From Longimicrobiales bacterium (GTDB lineage: Bacteria > Gemmatimonadota > Gemmatimonadetes > Longimicrobiales > Gaopeijiaceae): a stretch of DNA of 64,000 bases. The DNA lies in the NCBI GenBank assembly GCA_963422615.1, contig OY730414.1, forward strand, positions 2,402,302 through 2,466,301. Reading direction: 5' to 3'. The notes beneath the pieces were generated by a model. That model was not told where the DNA came from and searched no databases. It saw only the letters and a program-made list of their open reading frames with translations. The position numbers were made by a program, and so were the translations under genes. Shown here in pieces: positions 49,404 to 62,299 of the stretch; the first letter of the stretch is position 1; every line of letters begins with the position of its first letter.

Positions 49404-51587
49404 ATGCCCGATCTGCCCAAATCCAGCTGGCGTCTTCCGATAGCGACGGGCGTGGTTGCATTCGGCCTTGCCATCGGTGTTGCCACCGGCGTGGATTTGA
49501 CGCCACATGTGGAAGCAGACTTCTTTTTCGCTCCTGGCGACCCCCAGCTTCGGGAGTCCCGGGCGCTTGAGGCCCGCTACCCCGCCGGGGAGCTGTTGAT
49601 CGTACGGGCCCAGTCCTCCGACATTACCGCCGAATCGTACGAAACCCGGGTGGTGGATTTGCACGCCGCCCTGAACGCGATCCCTGGCGTGGCCGCCGTC
49701 TACTCCGTGGCCGACCAAGATTCGTCCAGTCCCCTTTGGGGCCGCGTTCTAACGCCGGCCGCGGCGGCGGCCACAAATCTGGTGGTCCAGCTGGACGTGA
49801 CGGACCCCGTCCCGCTTGCGCAACAGCTGGAATCGGTGTTGGCAGCCCACCAGCGCCCCGACTTCCGGCTCCTTGCGTCGGGCGTCCCGTTGATCGTGGA
49901 GCTGATTCGTCGGGGGCTCACTAGGGACCTCATCGTCTTCAGCACCACGGCGCTCCTGCTCTTCGGTCTTATCACCACCCTCATCTACCGCGATGGACGC
50001 GTCGTCGCGGGAACGCTGCTGTCCTGCTTCTGCGCCTGTGCAACCGTTGCCCTCGTCATCGGCCTGACCGGCATTGGCGTCGGGCTGCTCACCGCGAACA
50101 TCATCACCATCGTATTTGTTCTCACCCTGTCTCACACCGTGTTCATCACCGCCAACTGGCGTCGGGCCGCAGAAAAGAACGGCCCTGCAAGTACGAACAG
50201 CCAGGGAGGGGCTTCGGCGGCAGCCCAGGCGGTCATCCAAACGATCCGGCCCTCGTGCTGGTGCATGCTTACAACGTTGCTCGGGTTTCTGAGCCTCCGA
50301 ATGGCGGCGGCGGAGCCGCTGCGGGAGTTGGGGACCGCGGGGGCCGCCGGCACCGTAATCGCCCTGGTCTGCGCCTTCGGCATCCTTCCCGTTTGGCTTG
50401 GGAGCGCCGGACCGAACCCGACCGCAGCTAGGCCCTCCGAACCATCGGACGCCTCCGGTATCCTGCGGAAGTTGCGCCTGCGACCGGTTGGGGACCGCGT
50501 CGCCTCCCGCTTGTGGCCCCAGGGCCTCTCCCAGCCTTCGCCCGGGCGCCTGGCCATTGGGGGACTCATCGTCGCGATCTTGGGCACCGGCATTTTTCGA
50601 CTCAACACCGACCCCAGCCTCCTCAGCTACTTCGACCCTGACGGCCCGATTCGGTCGGGACTCCAAGTGGTCGACCGGGAAGGAGGCAGCAGTCCCCTTC
50701 TCTTTGCCGTGGCCGACCCCGCCGGACAACCCCTGGACAACATCGGCGGCTACGAAAGGATGTGGGAGTTCCAAGACTCCCTAGAGGCGGATCCGGCGAC
50801 GGGGATCGTGTTGTCTCCTGCGCCCATCCTGGCCCACGCCCGAACCCTCCCTCTGGCCGGATTCCTACCGATCTCCTTTCTCCTGGACCTTCTGGAACGC
50901 CCGGAGTTGGACGGCATCGCGGGGGGGTTCGTTCTTGAGGACCGTACGGAGGTCCTCTACTCCATCCGCATGATTGAGGACGGCAGAACGGAGCCTCGGA
51001 GCGCCGTAGTCGCCCGATTGGCGGCGCATGCCCAGACGGCTGGTCTTTCCGTCCAATCCACGGGCGGGCTCTACGAACTCCAGGGGCGACTGGGGACCCT
51101 GATCGCCGGGAGCCTGAAGGCGGGCCTGGGCGGGCTCCTGATCCTGTTTCTGGTGATCGGCGTATTCGTTTCGCGCTCGGGGTCCACCACCCTGGCCATG
51201 TTCGCGTGTCTCCTTGCGGTTCCGGCCGTGGTCCTCGGGGTCTTCGGCCACCTGGGCGTCGCCGTGGACATCATCACCTCTCCGGCAGCCATTGTGGCCT
51301 TGGCCTTGGGGGTGGACTCCATGATCCACCTCGTGAATCGCGAAAGGCAACTCGCGGGGGACCCCACCCGGAAGGGAACCTCGTGGCATGCCGCCAGGGC
51401 CCAGCTCACAGCGCCCATCGTCATTGCGTGTGCCATCATTTGCGTCGGGTTCGGGATCTTCGCCCTTTCGGACTTCCCCCCCACCCGACGCTTCGGCTTC
51501 GCGGTCATCCTGGGAACCGCTTCGGCAGCGGCAACGGCCCTGATTGCCCTTCCCGGCATCGTGGCATGGAGGCGGTCCCGGGATTGA
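49404..51587 (+). CDS. MMPL/RND-family transporter
   Basis: Two repeated TM halves; LTTLLGFLSL, ALGVDSMIH, VGFGIFALSDFPPTRRFG. Confidence 0.88.
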   Translation: MPDLPKSSWRLPIATGVVAFGLAIGVATGVDLTPHVEADFFFAPGDPQLRESRALEARYPAGELLIVRAQSSDITAESYETRVVDLHAALNAIPGVAAVYSVADQDSSSPLWGRVLTPAAAAATNLVVQLDVTDPVPLAQQLESVLAAHQRPDFRLLASGVPLIVELIRRGLTRDLIVFSTTALLLFGLITTLIYRDGRVVAGTLLSCFCACATVALVIGLTGIGVGLLTANIITIVFVLTLSHTVFITANWRRAAEKNGPASTNSQGGASAAAQAVIQTIRPSCWCMLTTLLGFLSLRMAAAEPLRELGTAGAAGTVIALVCAFGILPVWLGSAGPNPTAARPSEPSDASGILRKLRLRPVGDRVASRLWPQGLSQPSPGRLAIGGLIVAILGTGIFRLNTDPSLLSYFDPDGPIRSGLQVVDREGGSSPLLFAVADPAGQPLDNIGGYERMWEFQDSLEADPATGIVLSPAPILAHARTLPLAGFLPISFLLDLLERPELDGIAGGFVLEDRTEVLYSIRMIEDGRTEPRSAVVARLAAHAQTAGLSVQSTGGLYELQGRLGTLIAGSLKAGLGGLLILFLVIGVFVSRSGSTTLAMFACLLAVPAVVLGVFGHLGVAVDIITSPAAIVALALGVDSMIHLVNRERQLAGDPTRKGTSWHAARAQLTAPIVIACAIICVGFGIFALSDFPPTRRFGFAVILGTASAAATALIALPGIVAWRRSRD

Positions 51588-51722
51588 ACACAAGAGCCCC
51601 AGAAAACGTGCGCATCCGCGGCTCTACCCCCGAGATGTTCGTGACCGTCGTGACCGCCTTGGCATGAACGCGGGAGATCGGTATCCGCAAAGATGCCAGG
51701 ATCAAGGGGGACAAATCGCCGG

Positions 51723-52340
51723 TTACAGGGCTCCCAAGGCAGCCACGATGTCGGCGTTCGAGGGGCGGACCCGGTAGTCCACCTCCACGAACCGCCAGCG
51801 CACGATACCATCCTTTCCGATGACGAAGGTCGCCGGATGGGGAACGGGACGGTTGGGAGGCGCGTCCGCGTTGAAGAGTCCGTAGCGGTCAATCACCTGG
51901 TGGTCCGGATCCGACAGCATGACGAAGTCGGGGACGGGAGCTTCCTGGGCGACGATGCGGTTGATCATCTGCTGCATCCCCTCCCGGTCGTCCACCGATA
52001 CGGTGACAATCTCCGTATCGTCCTTCATCTCCGGTGTCAGGACGGCTCTCAGCTCCCCGAGCTGACTGGCGCAGTAGGGTCACCAGTGTCCCCGGTAGAA
52101 GACCAGAACCACGTTCTTCTCCCCCCGGAAACGGGCCAAATCCACGGTGTCGCCCCGAAACGATTCAAGGGCAAAGCGCGGCGCTTCGTCCCCTACGGCC
52201 ACGCGTTCCAACTGGGTGGCGGAAAGGTCTCGCCCGTCCGCCGGCCCCAGGGCCACCTTCCGGGTTTCGGGTTGGGGCGTGCATGCGGCAAATGCGGCGA
52301 GGAGGAAACCCGTCGCAAGGGTTCGAAGCGAAGTTTTCAC
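51723..52340 (-). CDS. Selenocysteine-containing peroxiredoxin-like (AhpC/TSA/redoxin) lipoprotein, U-x-x-C
   Basis: Track ORFs 52080-52340 and 51723-52028 are in the same frame. Reading through TGA 52080-52082 gives VVLVFYRGHW-U-PYCASQLGEL...PHPATFVIGKDGIVRW (205 aa); lipobox FAAC. Confidence 0.88.
52049..52065 (-). promoter_or_regulatory. Putative bacterial SECIS hairpin
   Basis: On the mRNA, UCAGCUC-GGG-GAGCUGA forms a perfect 7-bp stem with a G-rich loop, starting 14 nt after the UGA. Confidence 0.7.
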
Positions 52341-52455
52341 GGATGCAAAGTCCTTATTCCCGAGGCCACGCCGAGCGAATCGCCGGCCAAGTGTGTGTAG
52401 GTATCTCTACGCGCTGTTCCTCCCCCAAGGCAAGTGGGGCCGCATGCGCTGATGA

Positions 52456-52472
52456 CCGGGATAGTATCCCGG
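52456..52472. promoter_or_regulatory. Perfect 8-1-8 palindrome CCGGGATA-G-TATCCCGG (possible operator)
   Basis: Intergenic, about 115 nt upstream of the selenoprotein start. Confidence 0.35.
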
Positions 52473-52596
52473 CGTCTCCAAATGTGGAACATGGCCCCGG
52501 GGCGACAAGGCGGCGTCACGGCCATTCCGATGAACGAATCACTTGCCACCCTCTCCACGGCCGCAGCCTGCCAACTCGGCTGTCGCTCCTCCCGCC

Positions 52597-53991
52597 CTAC
52601 ATCGTCGGTCGGCCGGCCTCCAGATAATCCAGCAACAGGTTTGTCATGGCCCGGATGCCCACGGGAACGGCCGAGTTGTCCGCCTGGAAGTCGGGGGTGT
52701 GATGGCCGCCCGAGGTCCCGCCGGGCTTGACTTGGCCTAGTCGGAAGAAGAAGCCGGGGACTTCGTTGGCGAAGTAGGCGAAGTCCTCGCCGCCCATGGT
52801 GGGATCCAGGTCCAGGACGTTGTCGGCTCCTAGCACCCGCTCCAGCGTCGGTCTCATCTGGGCGGCCAGAGCCGGATCGTTGATCGTCGCCGGCGTCCCC
52901 CGGTCGTAGTCCAGCTCGAAGGTACCGCCTCCGGCACTCGTGATCCCCGCCAGGATCTCCCCCATCCGCCGCTCCACGGCGTCCCGTACGTCCGGGTTGT
53001 AGGTGCGCACCGTACCCTCCATCTTGACCACGTCCGGGATGATGTTGAAACGGGTTCCGCCCCGAATCATCCCGACGGTAACCACACTGGGCTCCAGGGG
53101 ACTCAGGTTGCGCGACCGGATGGTCTGGAACGCGGTGACGGCCTGCGACGCCATGACAACGGGGTCGACTCCCAAGTGGGGCGCGGCTCCGTGGGACTGC
53201 TTCCCCACGACCCGAACCTGGAAGTGGTCAACCGCGGCGAGGGCCGGGCCCACCGAAAACCCCACCTTCCCCACTTCCATCTCGGCAAAGCTGTGGAGAC
53301 CGAAGATGGCGCTCGGAGCGGGAGCGGCGAGGACACCTTCCTCCACCATCAGCTTGGCGCCACCCTCTTCGCCCGGGGGCGGTCCTTCCTCCGCCGGCTG
53401 AAAGATGAACTTCACCGTTCCCGGCAGTTCGTCGCGCATGGATGCCAGGACCGACGCGACCCCTAGCTGTACGGCTACGTGAATATCGTGCCCGCAGGCG
53501 TGGGACACGCCAACCTCCTGGCCCAGATAGGTGGTACGCACCGTGGACTTGAAGGGGAAGGGCGTGTCCTCGGTGACGGGGAGGGCGTCCATGTCCGCCC
53601 TCACTGCAACGACGGGACCGGGCCGACTTCCCCGCAGGATCCCCACGACGCCTGTGTGGGCGATTCCCGTGTGGACCTCGTCGAAGCCGAGACCCCGAAG
53701 ATGGTTCGCGACGAGCTCGGCCGTCTTGAACTCCCGGTTCCCCAGCTCGGGGTTCTGGTGAATGACTTCTCGAAGCCGGATGATCGAGTCCTGGACGCGG
53801 GCCACTGCGGCGGTGATCTCCCCTTCCTGGGCGCCGAGAAAGGCCGGAGGCGGCACGACCACGGCGGCGGCCAAGCCGGCCGCAACAGCAACCGACCCGA
53901 AGACCGGGATCCGACCCCAATGTCTCATCCGGCCCACATCCCTTGCCGCATCCACCGCGGCACCCAGGAGGTTTCTCTTCATCTCCATCAT
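52597..53991 (-). CDS. M20D family amidohydrolase
   Basis: HQNPELG, RADMDALP, HACGHD, FQPAEEG, GEDFA and HHTPDF; start uncertain (53991, 53982 or later). Confidence 0.93.
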   Translation of the reverse strand: MMEMKRNLLGAAVDAARDVGRMRHWGRIPVFGSVAVAAGLAAAVVVPPPAFLGAQEGEITAAVARVQDSIIRLREVIHQNPELGNREFKTAELVANHLRGLGFDEVHTGIAHTGVVGILRGSRPGPVVAVRADMDALPVTEDTPFPFKSTVRTTYLGQEVGVSHACGHDIHVAVQLGVASVLASMRDELPGTVKFIFQPAEEGPPPGEEGGAKLMVEEGVLAAPAPSAIFGLHSFAEMEVGKVGFSVGPALAAVDHFQVRVVGKQSHGAAPHLGVDPVVMASQAVTAFQTIRSRNLSPLEPSVVTVGMIRGGTRFNIIPDVVKMEGTVRTYNPDVRDAVERRMGEILAGITSAGGGTFELDYDRGTPATINDPALAAQMRPTLERVLGADNVLDLDPTMGGEDFAYFANEVPGFFFRLGQVKPGGTSGGHHTPDFQADNSAVPVGIRAMTNLLLDYLEAGRPTM

Positions 53992-54137
53992 GAATTTCCT
54001 TGGCAGAAGCACTGAAGGTGAACGGTAAGGGAGAACCGGATCGGCGGTCCTGATCCGCATCCCCCCGCCGGCGCGGCGGCCGTCGGTCAATGTTACGGAT
54101 TTCAGGCACAGGGGCCAGTCGGTATATTCCCGTGCCC

Positions 54138-54824
54138 ATGTCCGCCACCCCGCCCGCACTCCGCCTCGAATCCGCGACGAAGCGCTATCCGCAGCCCGGT
54201 GGGCGGTGGCTTGTCGCTCTCCAGCCGACCAGCTTGGCCCTTGAGCCGGGTTCCGCGACCGCCGTGGTGGGCCGGAGCGGAAGCGGCAAGACGACCCTCC
54301 TCCACCTGGCGGCCGGGATCGACGTACCCGATTCGGGCCGGGTCCAGGTCCTGGGCAGGGATCTTTCCAGGATGGCGGACGGGGAAAGGGCGGTATTTCG
54401 GCGGGACCACTTGGGACTGGTCTTCCAGTTCTTCCGCCTCCTCCATCACCTGACTGTGGAGGAGAACGTCTCCCTCCCCGCTCTCATCGCCGGCGACCTC
54501 TCCAGGCACCGGCGGCGGGGAAGGGAGCTGCTGGAGCGGGTCGGCTTGGCGGACCGGGCCCAGGAAAGGATCGACGCCCTGAGCGGGGGCGAGCAGCAAC
54601 GGGTCGCGATCTGCCGGGCGCTTTTACGGAGGCCGTCCCTTCTCTTGGCCGACGAGCCCACGGGTAACCTGGACGACGAAGCCAGTGCGGTCGTCATGGG
54701 CCTGATCTTCGACCTCGTCGGAGAAAATGGAGGAACCCTCCTCGTCGTCACCCACAGCACCGAAGTCGCGGCCTTGGCGGACCGGAAGCTGGAACTTTCC
54801 AGCGGGGTCCTGATTCCTTCGTGA
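54138..54824 (+). CDS. ABC transporter ATP-binding protein (LolD/MacB-like)
   Basis: GRSGSGKT, LSGGEQQRVA, LLADEPTGNLD and VTH. Confidence 0.93.
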   Translation: MSATPPALRLESATKRYPQPGGRWLVALQPTSLALEPGSATAVVGRSGSGKTTLLHLAAGIDVPDSGRVQVLGRDLSRMADGERAVFRRDHLGLVFQFFRLLHHLTVEENVSLPALIAGDLSRHRRRGRELLERVGLADRAQERIDALSGGEQQRVAICRALLRRPSLLLADEPTGNLDDEASAVVMGLIFDLVGENGGTLLVVTHSTEVAALADRKLELSSGVLIPS

Positions 54825-54834
54825 CCGGCCGCCC

Positions 54835-57501
54835 ATGACGGGGTACCTCCGGTCGGTCCTCCGACACCGCCTGGCCACCGAACTGTCCCTCGGCCTTGTC
54901 GCCGTCGGGGGCATCGCCGTGGGCACGGGCTCCGTTGTCACGGTGCAGATCCTGACCGCCGGGGCCATTTCGGCCTTCGACAGGACGGTGGATCTGGTCA
55001 GCGGGGACGCCGACGCCGTGGTCCTGGGACACGGAGGGAAGCTGGACGAAGAACTGTATCCCGTCGTCCTCGCCACCGAGGGAGTCGCTGCTGCAACGCC
55101 CGTTTTGGAAACAACCCTACTTGTCCGCGCCCCGGCCCCGAATCCGGACGCAAAGGCACCGGACCTCCATGCTCCGGCTCCGTTCCGTCGGGTCCAGCTC
55201 TACGGCCTGGACCTCCTCTCGTCACCGGAGATCCCCCGATACCTGGCCGGTTCGGACGCTCAGGCCGCCGGCAGACAGAGTGGATCCTTCGGCGCCATTC
55301 CAGACTCGCCACCCCACATCACCTCTCTCGGCGACGCCGCTATTTCGGGAGGACTGGCCCGAGAACTGGGCCTCCAAGCTGGTGATTCCATGGAAATCGG
55401 CTATGGCCCGGCCCGAACCTCTCTGATCGTATCCCGGGTCCTGACGGACCAGGCAGGCCCCGGAGGCGGTCCCGCCCTTGTCATGGACATGCACGCCGCT
55501 CAGGAAGCTCTCGGAGGGGCGGAATGGATCACCCGGATCAACGTTCGCTTCCGATCCGGCTATGCGCCCCAGGAGGTGCTGGCGCGCCTCGCCGACAACC
55601 TGGACGGTGGAGCTCTCCTCTCTAGCCCGGAAGAGCAGCGCCGGGAGGCCGAACGGTTGCTGGCCTCGTTTCGCACCAACCTGTCCGCGCTAAGCTTCAT
55701 ATCCGTTTTCGTGGGCTTGTTCCTGGTATACGGGACCACAAGGGCGTCGCTAATCCGGCGGCGGGAAGAGATGGGCGTCCTGAGGAGTCTGGGCGCGACC
55801 CGGAGCCAAGTGCTGGTCGTGGTCTTGGCCGAAGCCGGGGTACTGGGTCTTCTCGGGGCGGCCCTGGGCGTCCCCCTCGGGTTCTTGGCGGCCCAAGCCA
55901 ACCTGGAGTCGGTCAGCGGGACGGTGACCGACCTATACCTGCTATCGGCGATCCAGAACCTCGAAGTCCCGGGCTCGGTCTGGATACTCGCGGTCGTCGG
56001 GGGGCTGGTAGGGACCCTCGTTGGCGCAGCCGGACCTGCCGCCGAAGTCTGCTTGACCCCGGTGACGGCTTTGCTCACCGAACAGCGCGTCCGGGGGCGC
56101 TGGCGCGCGTGGGCGAAGTGGTTGTGGCGGGGCGGATGGCTGCTTCTGGCCGTCCTTCTGGCTTGGTTCGCCGCCGGTGGCCGGCGCTGGCAACACGCAG
56201 GCTTCGTCGTGGCCGGCGGAATCATGGTCTGGACGGCCCTCGTTACGCCCAAGTTCGTGTCGGCGTTGTGCGGACGCGTCAACCCCCGGGGCTTCGGATG
56301 GCGCTTTGCGCTGCGGAGTCTATCGGTGCGGGTGCATACCTCCGGTGTCGCCGTCGCCGGCGTTGCCATCGCAGTCGGCACGCTCGTGGGAATCACGGTC
56401 ATGGTGGGCAGCTTCCGGGACACTTTCACGACTTGGCTGAACCGTACGGTTCGCGCCGATGTGTACCTGTCGGCTGCTGCATGGAGGGGTGAAGCGGATT
56501 CGGGCGGGATCGGCGGCAACCTTGCAAGCGAGCTCCGAAAGCTGTCTGGCGTCGCCTTCGTGGACCGCTTGCGGGGCTTCGGGGGCTACGCTGCAGGCCT
56601 CCCCGTGGCTCTGCGAGGGGTGGATTTCGGGCTCTCCGCGCTCAACGGACGGTACTCCTTTCTGGACGGGGACCCGGGAGCCATCGCCGGGAAGGTCAGG
56701 GCCGGCAGTGTGGTGGTTAGCGAGCCGCTGGCCCGCCGCACCGGACTGTGGGAGGGCGACTTCGTTCCCGTGCTTACCAAGACCGGGCCGGTCAACGCAG
56801 AGATCGCAGGAGTCTACTACGAATACGGTTCCGAGCGCGGATCCCTCGCCATGGACTTGGCGACGATGGATCGATGGTTCGGCCCGGGAGATCCCCACGC
56901 CCTGGCCGTGTATCTGGCCCCGGGGATCGACGCGGAGGCGGGCGCGACGGTCGTGCGGCAGGCGGCATCGTCGTACCCGGTTACAATCCGGACGAACCGG
57001 AGCCTTCGGGAGAACGCGGTCCGGGTCTTCGACCAGACCTTTGCGGTCACTCTGCTGCTCCAGGGCATGGCCTTGGCCATGGCCGCCGCCGGTGTCGCCT
57101 TGTCCCTGCTGGTCATGGCGCGGGAGGAGTCCCGCGAGACCGCCGTCTACAGGGCCCTGGGCGCCACCCGACGGCAGGTCTTCCGCTTCTTCCTCGGCAG
57201 GGGCATTGGGCTGGCGAGCCTGGGCGGCCTGCTGGGGTTGGTGGGGGGCGCGGGGCTGGCGCTGACCCTCGTCTACGTCACGAACCGGGCGTACTTCGGC
57301 TGGACGGTCCAGTTCGGCATCCCCACCTTCAACTTGCTCCAGCAAGGGGCCACCCTGGCCCTGACTGCGGTAGCGGCCTCCTGGCTGCCGGCACTCCGGG
57401 CCTCTTCCGACGGGGCGGCGGAAGCACGCTACCGTGCGCCCGCCTCCGGAAGGCTGCGGGCCGCGACCGGTCAGGACCCGGAAGGAGGGGAGTTGAGGTG
57501 A
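54835..57501 (+). CDS. FtsX-like ABC permease (two-half, AttFG-like)
   Basis: RREEMGVLRSLGA and RETAVYRALGA repeats; SFRTNL, GSFRDT and VFDQTFAVT. Confidence 0.9.
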   Translation: MTGYLRSVLRHRLATELSLGLVAVGGIAVGTGSVVTVQILTAGAISAFDRTVDLVSGDADAVVLGHGGKLDEELYPVVLATEGVAAATPVLETTLLVRAPAPNPDAKAPDLHAPAPFRRVQLYGLDLLSSPEIPRYLAGSDAQAAGRQSGSFGAIPDSPPHITSLGDAAISGGLARELGLQAGDSMEIGYGPARTSLIVSRVLTDQAGPGGGPALVMDMHAAQEALGGAEWITRINVRFRSGYAPQEVLARLADNLDGGALLSSPEEQRREAERLLASFRTNLSALSFISVFVGLFLVYGTTRASLIRRREEMGVLRSLGATRSQVLVVVLAEAGVLGLLGAALGVPLGFLAAQANLESVSGTVTDLYLLSAIQNLEVPGSVWILAVVGGLVGTLVGAAGPAAEVCLTPVTALLTEQRVRGRWRAWAKWLWRGGWLLLAVLLAWFAAGGRRWQHAGFVVAGGIMVWTALVTPKFVSALCGRVNPRGFGWRFALRSLSVRVHTSGVAVAGVAIAVGTLVGITVMVGSFRDTFTTWLNRTVRADVYLSAAAWRGEADSGGIGGNLASELRKLSGVAFVDRLRGFGGYAAGLPVALRGVDFGLSALNGRYSFLDGDPGAIAGKVRAGSVVVSEPLARRTGLWEGDFVPVLTKTGPVNAEIAGVYYEYGSERGSLAMDLATMDRWFGPGDPHALAVYLAPGIDAEAGATVVRQAASSYPVTIRTNRSLRENAVRVFDQTFAVTLLLQGMALAMAAAGVALSLLVMAREESRETAVYRALGATRRQVFRFFLGRGIGLASLGGLLGLVGGAGLALTLVYVTNRAYFGWTVQFGIPTFNLLQQGATLALTAVAASWLPALRASSDGAAEARYRAPASGRLRAATGQDPEGGELR

Positions 57502-58700
57502 TGCGGGTGATTGCCGGAACCCTTGCGGTGATTGCCGGAACCCTTGCGGCGTGCGGCCCCCGGGGGGAGCACCCGGCCGGCGGCGAAGTGCAGGCGATGC
57601 CTGGTAACGAAGCCGAGGCCGCGGCCGACGCCTCTCCCTGGCTCACCGCCGACTCCGCCTACCCGTGGTCCTTTCCCCGAGATCACGGTCCCCACATCGG
57701 ATACAAGACCGAGTGGTGGTACTTCACGGGAATCGTGACGGCAAGGGAAGCCGGCGGTGGCCTCCGCAACTTCGGCTACCAGTTCACGATCTTCAAAGTG
57801 GGGGTGACCCCGGAGAGCACTCCCGCCACCTCCCGCTGGGCCGCCAACTCCCTCCTGATGGGACACGCGGCGGTGAGCGACCCCAGCTCCGGGGAGCATA
57901 TCTTCTCCGAAGTCCTCTACCGGTCAAGTCCACTCCTAGCGGGGTTCGGCCAGGGAGCGGATTCGGTGATCGCCTGGACACGGGCGCCCCCGGGCACAAG
58001 CGCCCCGTGGCGGCTAGTGCGGCAGGACGAAGGCTTCACCCTCGAAGCCGGCGACCGGGGAGCGGGGATGGGGATCGCGCTGACCACCAAGCCGACACGT
58101 CCCATCGTCTTTCAGGGTCCCAACGGGTACAGCCGGAAGTCCCGAACACCGGGGCGGGCCAGCATGTACTACAGCCACACCCGTCTCGCCACCGCGGGCA
58201 CGATCCGCTACCGCGGGCAGGAGTACACCGTCACCGGCACGAGTTGGATGGACCACGAATTCAGCTCGAACCCCCTGGAGCCGACCCAGGTCGGTTGGGA
58301 TTGGCTGGGCCTTCGCTTCGAAGACGGGCGAGACTTGATGGCCTTCCGGATCAGAGAAAGCGGAGGGGAGCCCAACTTCACGGCCGCCACCTTGACCGGA
58401 GCCCGGGGTCGTACCCGTCACTTGGCGCCGGACGAGTGGTCCATCACCCCAGGGAGGCGCTGGACCAGCAGCAGAACCGGCACCCGCTACCCCGTGGAAT
58501 GGACCCTCACCCTCCCCGGAGAGCCCCGGGGGCTCATCGTCCGGGGCCGCTCCCATTCCCGGGAGAACGTCTCTGCCCGCCTGCCGAAGCTGTACTACTG
58601 GGAAGGCGCTGTGGACATCTTCCGGGTCTCCGGCGAACGGATCGGCGAAGGATACCTTGAAATGACCGGATACGGCACGGGCACCCGGCCGGCCCTGTGA
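57501..58700 (+). CDS. AttH-like / lipocalin-like (CrtC-family) lipoprotein
   Basis: FPRDHGPH..TEWWYFTG, SMYYS, WMDHEFS, GWDW, YWEG and GYLEMTGY; lipobox LAAC. Confidence 0.9.
   Translation: MRVIAGTLAVIAGTLAACGPRGEHPAGGEVQAMPGNEAEAAADASPWLTADSAYPWSFPRDHGPHIGYKTEWWYFTGIVTAREAGGGLRNFGYQFTIFKVGVTPESTPATSRWAANSLLMGHAAVSDPSSGEHIFSEVLYRSSPLLAGFGQGADSVIAWTRAPPGTSAPWRLVRQDEGFTLEAGDRGAGMGIALTTKPTRPIVFQGPNGYSRKSRTPGRASMYYSHTRLATAGTIRYRGQEYTVTGTSWMDHEFSSNPLEPTQVGWDWLGLRFEDGRDLMAFRIRESGGEPNFTAATLTGARGRTRHLAPDEWSITPGRRWTSSRTGTRYPVEWTLTLPGEPRGLIVRGRSHSRENVSARLPKLYYWEGAVDIFRVSGERIGEGYLEMTGYGTGTRPAL
57507..57548 (+). repeat. Perfect 21-bp in-frame tandem duplication encoding VIAGTLA x2
   Basis: GTGATTGCCGGAACCCTTGCG at 57507-57527 and 57528-57548. 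Confidence 0.9.
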
Positions 58701-59799: not shown

Positions 59800-61329
59800 C
59801 TAGAGTTTTCCGCCCGGTCTCATTGCCGATCCCGGCAGGGTGTGCCGACCGGCGTGGTTTACCATTTTCGGCCTTCCGCTACGGCAACATATCCCGTGGC
59901 GCCTTGCGCCCTTCAATCGCCTTTGCGAGCCTACCTGTTCCATTGTTGGAACCATCACACCGAGACCGCAGAACCTGCCGTCGCCGATGATCAGAGGGCC
60001 TGGAACCGCAGTGGAGAATCGCAATTCCACGTGCCAGAGCGCGTGCTTCGAGAATCGGGACCCGTTCGCGAACCGCTCTGCCATCACCCCCCTATGCTGG
60101 AAGGGCTCGCGCTGAACCCGGATACGGGTCGGTCGCGCGCGAACGCCAGCGTGGCGTAATGCCTGAACAACCGCTGCGGCAGCCCGCGCCTCTTCCCGAA
60201 TCCGCTCATCGGCGTTCTTGGTCAGGCTGCTCTCGTCAGCGCCAAGACGCCGCCGTATGGCGGCGGACAGTGCTACCGCGGTCACGCTGCGGAAAACCCG
60301 GGCGTCTTGCAAAAACCGATCCGCCATGCGTGAGTCTTCCGTCGACATGAGGCGTCCCGGCCAAGTTTCCCCGGTTTCCGGGTCGGACGGTGCAAGACCT
60401 GCGAAGGCCCACCGGAGATCATCGGCACGAATGGGACATCGGGCCGGAACGTCGATCATGACCCTGCGAATCGATGGGTCCGTATGCACGGCGCCGATGG
60501 ACGGTATCGGCGTTATCCTTATGCGCCGATCGAGATCCCGAGGGCCGGCACCGCGGCCAATGACCAGCTTTTCGAACAGCGTCGCTTGTGCAGGTAGGGA
60601 ATCCCGCAGCTTCCCTGCCGCAGCATCACGCAGACCGGCGATCAACGGCGCCGTGAGTCGTAGCGGTCGGGGTGTGAAGCCCGATCCGTCCCTCAGTTCG
60701 AAGTGCAGACGCCGCGGCGGCATCCGGTAGCCGACGCCGCGGAAAAGCGCCTTCGGCGGCTGGTTGAACAACTGACGGGGCTTGCCATCCGATCCGCTCC
60801 AGACCAACCGCTCTCGGGCCTGTACGTGTCTATTGATGAGGCTGGCGAGTGCTCCAGATTGGGGACAGGCCACTTCGCCGACGCCACCAGGAACGTAGAG
60901 CGCACCCACGTGGGCGGCCAGTACGGCTTCCGCCCGGTCTCGGGTAAGGATGTCCGCAACTGCCCACGCCATATCCACACCCCGCCCAAGCTGGTACACG
61001 CGGGCAGCGATGCCACGGACGCACTCCGCCTCGGCCCCGCCCGAATCGAAGTTCCAGACATAGACCGCCGGTTGGTCGGGATCGAAGAAGCAGGGCCGCC
61101 AGCGTTTGTCGGTGCGGATTTTCCCCACCCGCTGCGGGTCGCCGCCGACCGCGTCCAGGTCGTTGTTGGGAACGTACATCTTGACCGACTGCCCGCGCAG
61201 CACCTGCGGCGCAGCGATCCTGGGCGGCTCAAGCTGCTCCAGCCAGCATAGTGCCCGTTGATCCTCGGGAAGCACGTGCACCCCCCGTGCCGCCGCGGCT
61301 ACGAGGGCCTGGAAGAGGCGGCCGGGTGA
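59800..61329 (-). pseudogene. csb2: Type I-G (I-U) Csb2 (Cas5/Cas6-like), 5'-truncated
   Basis: SPGRLFQALVA, WLEQLEPP, YVPNND, LGRGVD, and G-loop GPLIIGDGRFCGLG; the N-terminal segment up to the usual (E)WPP is missing. Confidence 0.8.
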
Positions 61330-62299
61330 CAGCGACGGTGCGACTGTGGCAGTACACGAGTACACGTGCCGGGCCGTTTGTCTCCATCGAATCGAACAAG
61401 GGCAACGACCCGCGCTGCGGAGCCGAAGCCGATCGACGCTGACGGCCGAGTTTGACGGCGCGTTCGGCGAGACGTACAGGCAACTCCTTCGGATCGTCCA
61501 GTTCGATCACCTTCAGCCGCTTGCGCGCCGTCAACCGTGCGCGTACCACCGGCTCCTGTTTATCGGCTTCCGTCAACCGAAACACATCCGCCGAGTGCGT
61601 TTCCGCCGTCGTCCGTCCCGTCGCCGACAAGGACATCACGCAGAAAGGTGGCGCCGTTTCAGCGGCGGCTTCGTCCGCCGGGCCGAGTGCGCCATTCCGT
61701 TGCACCTCGATCTGCCGTAGCAGCCGTTCGAACGGAAGACACAAATGCGCCTCGTCAAGCAGGACCAGGGTATCGACGCCCAGAAGACCGGCCTGGAAGG
61801 GGCGCATCCCCCTGCGCCTTGATACGCCGTAGCCTCCGAACAGGAGCCGGGAGCCAATCATGTCGACGGTTCCAACCAGCAACGCCGGCCTGGAAGGATC
61901 ATCAAGCCAGTCCCGGTTGTCGACGAATCCGCCGCGCAGTGTGGAGATGGGAAGCCTCCGCTTCCCGTCGCGCCAACCGAGCCTGAGCCGATCCGCGAGA
62001 TCGGCCGGCAGGTTCGCGCGCAGCCGTTCCGCGAACCGCGTGGCCTGATCGACCACCGCGCGCCGATCGACGACATAGACCAGCCGGCGCGGCAGGCGCG
62101 TGCCCTCCCCGAGCGCGATCAGCCACAACGCCATGACGGAGGTCTTGCCAAGACCGGTGGGCACATCAACAGCAGCGGGCAAATCAGCATCGATGAAGCG
62201 GCGGAGCAAGCGCCTTTGCCAGCGGAACGGCGCATGCCCTGGTCGTCCTTCTTCCCAGGTCAGACACTCGAAGACGGCGTCCAATCGGTTCTTGTCTAA
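61330..62299 (-). pseudogene. cas3: Type I-G (I-U) Cas3 helicase, 3'-truncated
   Basis: PFRWQ, VPTGLGKT, PRRLVYVVDRRAVVDQ, TLRGG, GTVDMIGSRLLF, LDEAHL, LSAT and VLVYCHSR; similarity then stops, with no later helicase motifs and no HD domain. Confidence 0.85.

Follow-up and report, generated by a model that had tools for sequence, protein, structure and literature searches.

An AhpC/TSA-type redoxin gene on the reverse strand of the window (the whole stretch of 64,000 nucleotides that was analysed) carries one in-frame TGA, which raises the question whether this codon is read as selenocysteine (Sec) and, if so, what kind of enzyme is made. The coding sequence (51723..52340), assigned from sequence, Pfam and a structural model, runs from GTG to TAA and encodes 205 residues of a peroxiredoxin (Prx)-like redoxin; a possible ribosome-binding site, AAGGA, proposed from the sequence, lies 10 nt 5' of the GTG (52351..52355). 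The TGA (52080..52082) falls at residue 87 in the context FYRGHW-TGA-PYC, where it occupies the first position of U-P-Y-C, and its partner is Cys90 (52071..52073). A sequence-only reading had noted that the TGA replaces the first Cys of a FYRGxW-C-P-x-C motif and that a redoxin fold continues past it. Both observations were confirmed: 100 Cys homologues carry C at this position, 118 codons remain open 3' of the TGA, and the Pfam model AhpC-TSA (PF00578) spans the codon (residues 49-182, E 9.5e-29, 100.3 bits against a cut-off of 26). In an NCBIfam scan of the protein no model reached its cut-off, the best being SelL_rel_redox (51.5 of 120 bits); matches to the ResA/StoA/MauD models were weak and below cut-off (ResA, 43.8 of 170).

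The TGA itself is not a base-calling error. This possibility was excluded by identical independent contigs: a contig from a separate study's run (X5 record 4, 51914-52126) crosses the codon with zero letter differences and also has TGA, rather than the TGC or TGT that would have undone the sequence-only reading. A further sequence (X3), which possibly comes from the source study of the present DNA, agrees at the TGA as well, and raw reads (X10) give scant coverage of the stretch.

The genome (G000; one contig, 98.1% complete) was then searched for the selA, selB, selC and selD genes that the same reading had predicted. All were found above curated cut-offs, with 497 bits for selA, 308 for selB, 378 for selD and 79 for tRNA-Sec, and the objection that the genome might be without Sec machinery does not apply. 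The 97-nt tRNA-Sec (G000:C1:2035115-2035211 (-), L001:1501-1593) is the only UCA tRNA among 50 ARAGORN genes, and a relaxed ARAGORN run returned only noise. Visual inspection of this tRNA's fold and of its Rfam alignment shows a G-A mismatch at the would-be eighth acceptor pair. Elsewhere in the genome, 17 tRNA genes are arrayed within 2.3 kb (G000:C1:287968-290279 (-)).

Other recoded genes were sought with a coding-model scan, in which 29,691 TGA codons with open flanks were reduced to 89 candidates, most of them resembling ordinary gene junctions. Five of these were picked by eye and SelD, which the scan missed, was added from a separate search, giving a possibly incomplete list of six further recoded-TGA genes whose matches to redox families extend over the TGA or lie directly after it: FdhA, SelD, two OsmC-like proteins, an AhpD-like protein and a second AhpC/TSA protein. 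A hairpin lies downstream of the TGA in the FdhA gene (U-H-A-P; G000:C1:2308502 (+), L072), in the Sec-type SelD gene (G000:C1:390643, L017) and in the AhpD-like gene (C-F-Y-U; G000:C1:1471934 (+), L071). The two OsmC-like genes (G000:C1:874638 (-) and 1009307 (+); L069 and L070), with the motifs A-G-G-U and A-A-G-U, share a near-identical hairpin 26 nt downstream of the TGA and score far under the cut-off of the NCBIfam model OsmC_like_Se (35.1 and 19.9 of 95). The second Prx-fold gene (G000:C1:2470501-2471085 (-), L073:702-1322) encodes a signal peptide and R-V-R-T-R-G-U, that is, T-x-x-U with a downstream Arg, and lies convergent to a ccdA-like gene (2469067-2469693) and to one of TlpA/ResA type. 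The arrangement is reminiscent of the envelope TlpA-PprX pathway, with Sec as the difference.

The TGA is widely retained among relatives. The search of 60 relatives (one of which, the unpublished G056, counts only toward the genomes searched) gave 18 strong orthologues (E below 1e-50), and in each of them the same codon is TGA. The 16 loci taken from the relative search comprised 13 strong ones with TGA, one without coverage of the site, and two distant ones (28-29% identity) with Cys. Named relatives belong to Gemmatimonadota (the closest being a Longimicrobiales genome, 66% identity), Acidobacteriota, Methylomirabilota and Syntrophobacteraceae. A phylum sample of 251 genomes, searched with a Cys homologue, yielded 61 matches, 59 of them with one TGA, whose position was directly checked in 29 of the 59 and in 4 more; the remaining two were a TGA beside a frameshift (G206) and a Cys form (G200). 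Frameshifted orthologues that keep both TGA and hairpin occur in G003 (L033, before the site) and G206 (L107, just after it), and reflect either assembly error or decay. Two distant paralogues, L046 (G032:C74) and L047 (G013:C234), have 31-32% identity and one TGA each; L046 reads FFRGRW-U-PYC and has a different hairpin.

Carriers of the TGA also tend to carry the machinery. The selA gene was present in 28 of 30 tested carriers vs 15 of 32 non-carriers, and in all four further carriers; these counts are given without a test statistic because kin are not independent. In two carriers, G007 (78% complete) and G067, neither selA nor selB was matched, though a selD with a TGA is present in each and a tRNA-Sec in G067. 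The complete genome G200, with the Cys form, gave no selA or selD, and its borderline tRNA-Sec match (50.4 bits) was rejected as an ordinary tRNA-Ser.

These data bear directly on how the codon is decoded. Public gene calls treat the TGA as a true stop, which would make the locus a pseudogene or two short genes, and C-terminal pieces of 112-119 residues, some carrying the NCBI name 'redoxin domain-containing protein', do make up 18 of the best 120 database rows. Such a stop would cut the active site, however, and the codon persists in several phyla among proteins that are 45-73% identical and intact on either side of it, while its carriers track the Sec machinery and the hairpin described below covaries; we regard a true stop as very improbable. 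Even more remote is a reading of UGA as Trp or Cys through a variant code or suppressor tRNA. Six public homologues (P0020, P0089, P0108, P0116, P0117 and P0121) do show W at the site, but they keep Q-L-G-E-L and group with the Sec forms, and thus look like, and probably are, products of TGA=W gene calling on short contigs. In addition, the sole UCA tRNA detected is tRNA-Sec, and ordinary genes of this genome end in TGA (e.g. 49404-51587). On the comparative evidence, the TGA at residue 87 almost certainly encodes Sec.

The sequence-only reading also described a SECIS-type hairpin behind the UGA. A perfect 7-pair stem (UCAGCUC/GAGCUGA; 52049..52065) encodes Q-L-G-E-L and closes a GGG loop (52058-52056) that starts 21 nt past the UGA, with an energy of -8.6 to -9.4 kcal/mol. 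This structure agrees with the bSECIS consensus as outlined in PMC13188914, which has a stem of 4-16 pairs, a loop of 3-9 nt with G in first or second place, a distance of 16-37 nt from the UGA and an energy of at most -7.5 kcal/mol. In single-sequence folding, three stretches starting at or just past the UGA were indistinguishable from shuffles (z 0.13 to 0.43), and a longer stretch gave z -1.78; at likely ordinary TGA stops of the genome, a similar hairpin was present in 22 of 388 cases and an equally good one in 4 of 388. The hairpin is thus unremarkable when folded alone, and the case for it rests on comparison.

Across 31 distinct orthologue rows, the stem was 95.4% paired, compared with 28-49% in slid registers, and both-side changes occurred at three of the seven pairs (15 cells). 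None of 500 shuffles reached the observed values for these cells or for the covariation score, and 90 and 112 of 500 did so for two pair-count measures, in a test that is inflated by related genomes. RNAalifold found the same stem and no other. Examples of covariation are TTC with GAA in Q-F-G-E-L forms (3 rows) and the outer pair, which is UA in 19 rows and GC in 6. In all 28 loci fetched afterwards the five core pairs are retained and the loop begins with G (GT in 17, GG in 11). At the protein level, the residue encoded by the loop is G or V in every one of the 59 Sec forms vs 3 of 100 Cys forms, and the codons CAG and CTG are fixed in all 59, although CTG makes up 147 of the 389 Leu codons in the upstream part of these genes. 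DNA for a Cys form, from one locus (L075), has AAG at the loop codon and one core pair broken. Protein constraint accounts for some of the stem conservation, given that four of the seven pairs are invariant and that Cys forms likewise always have Q-L. The perfect stem and G-rich loop of the sequence-only reading are therefore upheld by covariation and by the additional loci, with the reservation that the hairpin alone folds no better than shuffles.

The N-terminus points to an exported protein. Residues 1-19 form a predicted signal peptide that is followed by a lipobox Cys20 (codon 52283-52281; signal and lipobox together, 52281..52340); Cys20, in LLAAFAAC, fits a Prosite-style lipobox pattern, and a basic n-region, a hydrophobic stretch and a lipobox Cys within residues 15-35 are all present. 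Residues 6-18 are helical in the AlphaFold2 model, and the genome encodes lspA (signal peptidase II). Among intact rows, all 57 Sec forms and 76 of the 78 Cys forms have a hydrophobic N-terminal stretch; the counts exclude two Sec rows that are truncated and 22 from the Cys set that lack the anchor motif or a sufficiently long N-terminus. The lipobox was present in 17 of 57 Sec and 0 of 78 Cys forms with a strict pattern, and in 19 of 59 and 4 of 100 with a looser one. Judged from these sequences, export is a family trait and lipidation is probably optional. The present protein is very likely exported and probably carries a lipid anchor at Cys20, so that the exported Sec enzyme read from the lipobox stands on a family-wide export signal, with the lipobox itself a minority feature.

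With C in place of U, the AlphaFold2 model had a mean pLDDT of 88.1 and was structurally closest to Bcp and AhpE, with a query-normalised TM-score of about 0.6 against about 0.5 for ResA. In the alignment with AhpE, U87 lies at the Thr, C90 at the peroxidatic Cys, R83 at the Pro, and P169 (51834..51836) at Arg116. The protein accordingly lacks the PxxxT/SxxC(U) motif, having R-G-H-W-U-P-Y-C where AhpE has P-L-A-F-T-G-I-C, and it lacks the catalytic Arg, for which it has Pro169. Both Cys90 and Pro169 are invariant in the homologue alignment A3; the catalytic-Arg site of peroxiredoxins is also Pro in the TlpA/ResA-like structure 3hdc. The Cys forms retain the same triad-less arrangement. The 'peroxiredoxin-like' identity given earlier thus holds for the fold, through AhpC-TSA and the Bcp and AhpE matches, but with the Prx triad absent the protein is probably no classical peroxidase. 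The missing triad and the Pro in place of the catalytic Arg make a thiol-disulfide oxidoreductase likelier than a peroxidase.

The reading that we favour, with somewhat better than even confidence, is that the locus is one gene for an exported selenoenzyme that performs thioredoxin-type disulfide exchange, is decoded through SelB and is re-reduced by a CcdA/DsbD-type partner. SelB bound to the hairpin 3' of the UGA would deliver Sec-tRNA and make residue 87 selenocysteine, and the chain would then be exported and lipid-anchored at Cys20. Outside the cytoplasm the Sec87 selenolate, acting like the first Cys of a thioredoxin CxxC, would attack a disulfide or oxidised thiol of an envelope protein; Cys90 would resolve the mixed bond to leave a Sec87-Cys90 selenenylsulfide, which a CcdA/DsbD-type membrane carrier, perhaps via a TlpA-like protein, would re-reduce. 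We infer incorporation, lipidation, chemistry and electron donor alike. The genome has two DsbD_TM genes, one of them followed by a TlpA/ResA-like gene, about 15 kb away. Within the window, no dsbD/ccdA or substrate gene adjoins the Sec gene, and its neighbours, an M20 amidohydrolase gene upstream and a convergent MMPL transporter gene, give no pointer to the substrate. Clustering of neighbours at 60 loci, which was noisy and swamped by shadow frames, showed no family-wide partner (M20 amidohydrolase adjoining in 4, M28 peptidase in 7), and a promoter and terminator scan of 51400-52800 found nothing. Further along the window, an ABC ATPase and an FtsX/MacB-type permease (54090-58700 (+)) precede an ORF that we presume to resemble an AttH/lipocalin-type hydroxyneurosporene-synthase-like protein, and an ORF at 59800-61365 (-) may, to judge by its motifs, encode a type I-G/I-U CRISPR Csb2 protein.

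Two other functions of the same selenoprotein have to be weighed against disulfide exchange. As an envelope peroxidase, it would reduce H2O2 or lipid hydroperoxides with Sec87, without the triad, and Cys90 would resolve the product. Selenolates are good peroxide reductants, the nearest folds and sequences include Bcp/PrxQ and AhpE, R83 and R192, both invariant, might stabilise the transition state, and a gene for heme-copper oxidase subunit I in the genome indicates that the bacterium probably meets oxygen. Nevertheless, the triad is absent and Pro stands at the Arg site in Sec and Cys forms alike, and the second exported Sec protein, with its T-x-x-U and downstream Arg, suits a peroxidase role better. 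Caulobacter PrxL, described in PMC3322552 as exported, Prx-like and triad-less, is kept reduced by the DsbD-class ScsB and showed no peroxidase activity, which also argues against this function; PrxL falls in another CDD class (cd02969) and has distant cysteines, so the analogy is loose. On balance, we consider a peroxidase unlikely, though less so than the second possibility.

In that second possibility, U-x-x-C would bind or hand over a metal (copper, mercury or arsenic) or serve a narrow reduction such as cytochrome c maturation. The weak sub-cut-off matches to ResA/StoA/MauD models and the name SCO1/SenC on some N-terminal fragments in JGI are consistent with it, but the SCO names sit on truncated fragments of 80-87 residues, the SCO motif is CxxxC rather than UxxC, and the window neighbours include no cytochrome c maturation or metal genes. 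Exported Sec proteins that are thought to bind metal do exist, as outlined in bioRxiv 10.1101/2022.07.06.499078. We consider a metal or narrowly reductive role improbable.

The coexistence of Sec and Cys forms also raises the question of which came first. In a first tree of 169 rows, made with a quick method, most Cys forms fell in one clade and two small Cys clades lay among Sec forms; this tree included the SECIS-encoded columns, and its distant outgroups were unstable long branches. In a second tree, the site and the next 11 residues were masked, and 39 of 59 Sec, 22 of 101 Cys and 6 W rows were used, the Cys rows having been chosen after the first tree so as to include the small clades, which are known from proteins alone. 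Cys here needs four changes, forced by the starred branches and constant over the whole 5-95% bootstrap range, one of them being the long branch P0120. Holding 21 Cys rows together, with P0120 free, was only modestly rejected (p-AU 0.037), and the root, on two Acidobacteriota Sec forms, was chosen rather than inferred from the tree. A single hairpin, in the same register throughout, is common to all Sec forms, which makes repeated Sec gains less likely than repeated losses. We give about even weight to the view that this is an unnamed, ancient, exported Sec subfamily of Gemmatimonadota, Acidobacteriota, Methylomirabilota and Thermodesulfobacteriota, in which Sec and one homologous SECIS were ancestral and two to four Sec-to-Cys reversions followed, at least one of them in a lineage without Sec machinery. 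Sec-to-Cys changes are described as rare and mostly limited to FdhA and SelD in PMC13188914 and PMC1794560, and ancestral Sec with repeated reversion, if true, would run counter to that picture. If true, the present protein, together with the second exported Sec-Prx and its neighbours ccdA and a tlpA-like gene, would also make up a selenium-based envelope reducing pathway in an oxygen-respiring bacterium.

The findings leave the knowledge of Sec decoding itself unchanged. Their interest lies partly in annotation, since a widespread Gemmatimonadota selenoprotein stays uncounted: its family has no NCBIfam model, and public gene calls either split it or take the codon for Trp. They also provide paired Sec and Cys orthologues that are about 50% identical, the hairpin being fixed in Sec and relaxed in Cys forms, as a natural test of the benefit of Sec to an envelope redox enzyme and of the frequency of Sec-to-Cys reversion. 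A literature search by titles and abstract openings returned no paper on the subfamily or on Gemmatimonadota selenoproteomes; supplementary sequence sets (PMC2398784, sources of PMC13188914) may contain it. What is mildly new is a subfamily in which Sec predominates and Cys forms branch off at several points of the tree.

Among known systems, the protein belongs, by its features rather than by comparison with the type sequence WP_010940744.1, to the Prx-like thiol:disulfide oxidoreductase selenoproteins (PF00578, UxxC/UxxU), a family catalogued as predicted rather than verified in PMC13188914, PMC9312934 and PMC2398784 ('Prx-like 1'). It shares with them PF00578, U-x-x-C, a coding-region SECIS and Cys homologues at the site. 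The family descriptions seen in PMC13188914 mention no signal peptide, lipoprotein or Gemmatimonadota (0 occurrences), and exported selenoproteins as such are already known from bioRxiv 10.1101/2022.07.06.499078. The present subfamily is mostly Sec with nested Cys forms, in contrast to the 2006 table for the Prx-like family in PMC1794560, which lists three Cys-to-Sec events and no Sec-to-Cys event. PRX_like2 (CDD cd02970), matched here through its description in PMC3514251, likewise has CxxC with the second Cys at the position of the peroxidatic Cys and the other triad residues missing, but the present protein differs in its Sec and its export signal. With AhpE and Bcp/PrxQ it shares the fold, about 160 columns superposing at an rmsd of about 3 A with identities of up to 31%; unlike true peroxiredoxins, whose Sec forms read PxxxTxxU, it has neither PxxxTxxC/U nor the catalytic Arg, and its Sec stands at the Thr position. 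With the envelope thiol-disulfide reductases TlpA, ResA and CcmG it has in common an exported thioredoxin fold, W-C/U-x-x-C, a Pro at the matching site and probably reduction of the DsbD/CcdA type, and it differs from them in lying under the NCBIfam cut-offs, in its longer Prx-type fold and in its Sec.
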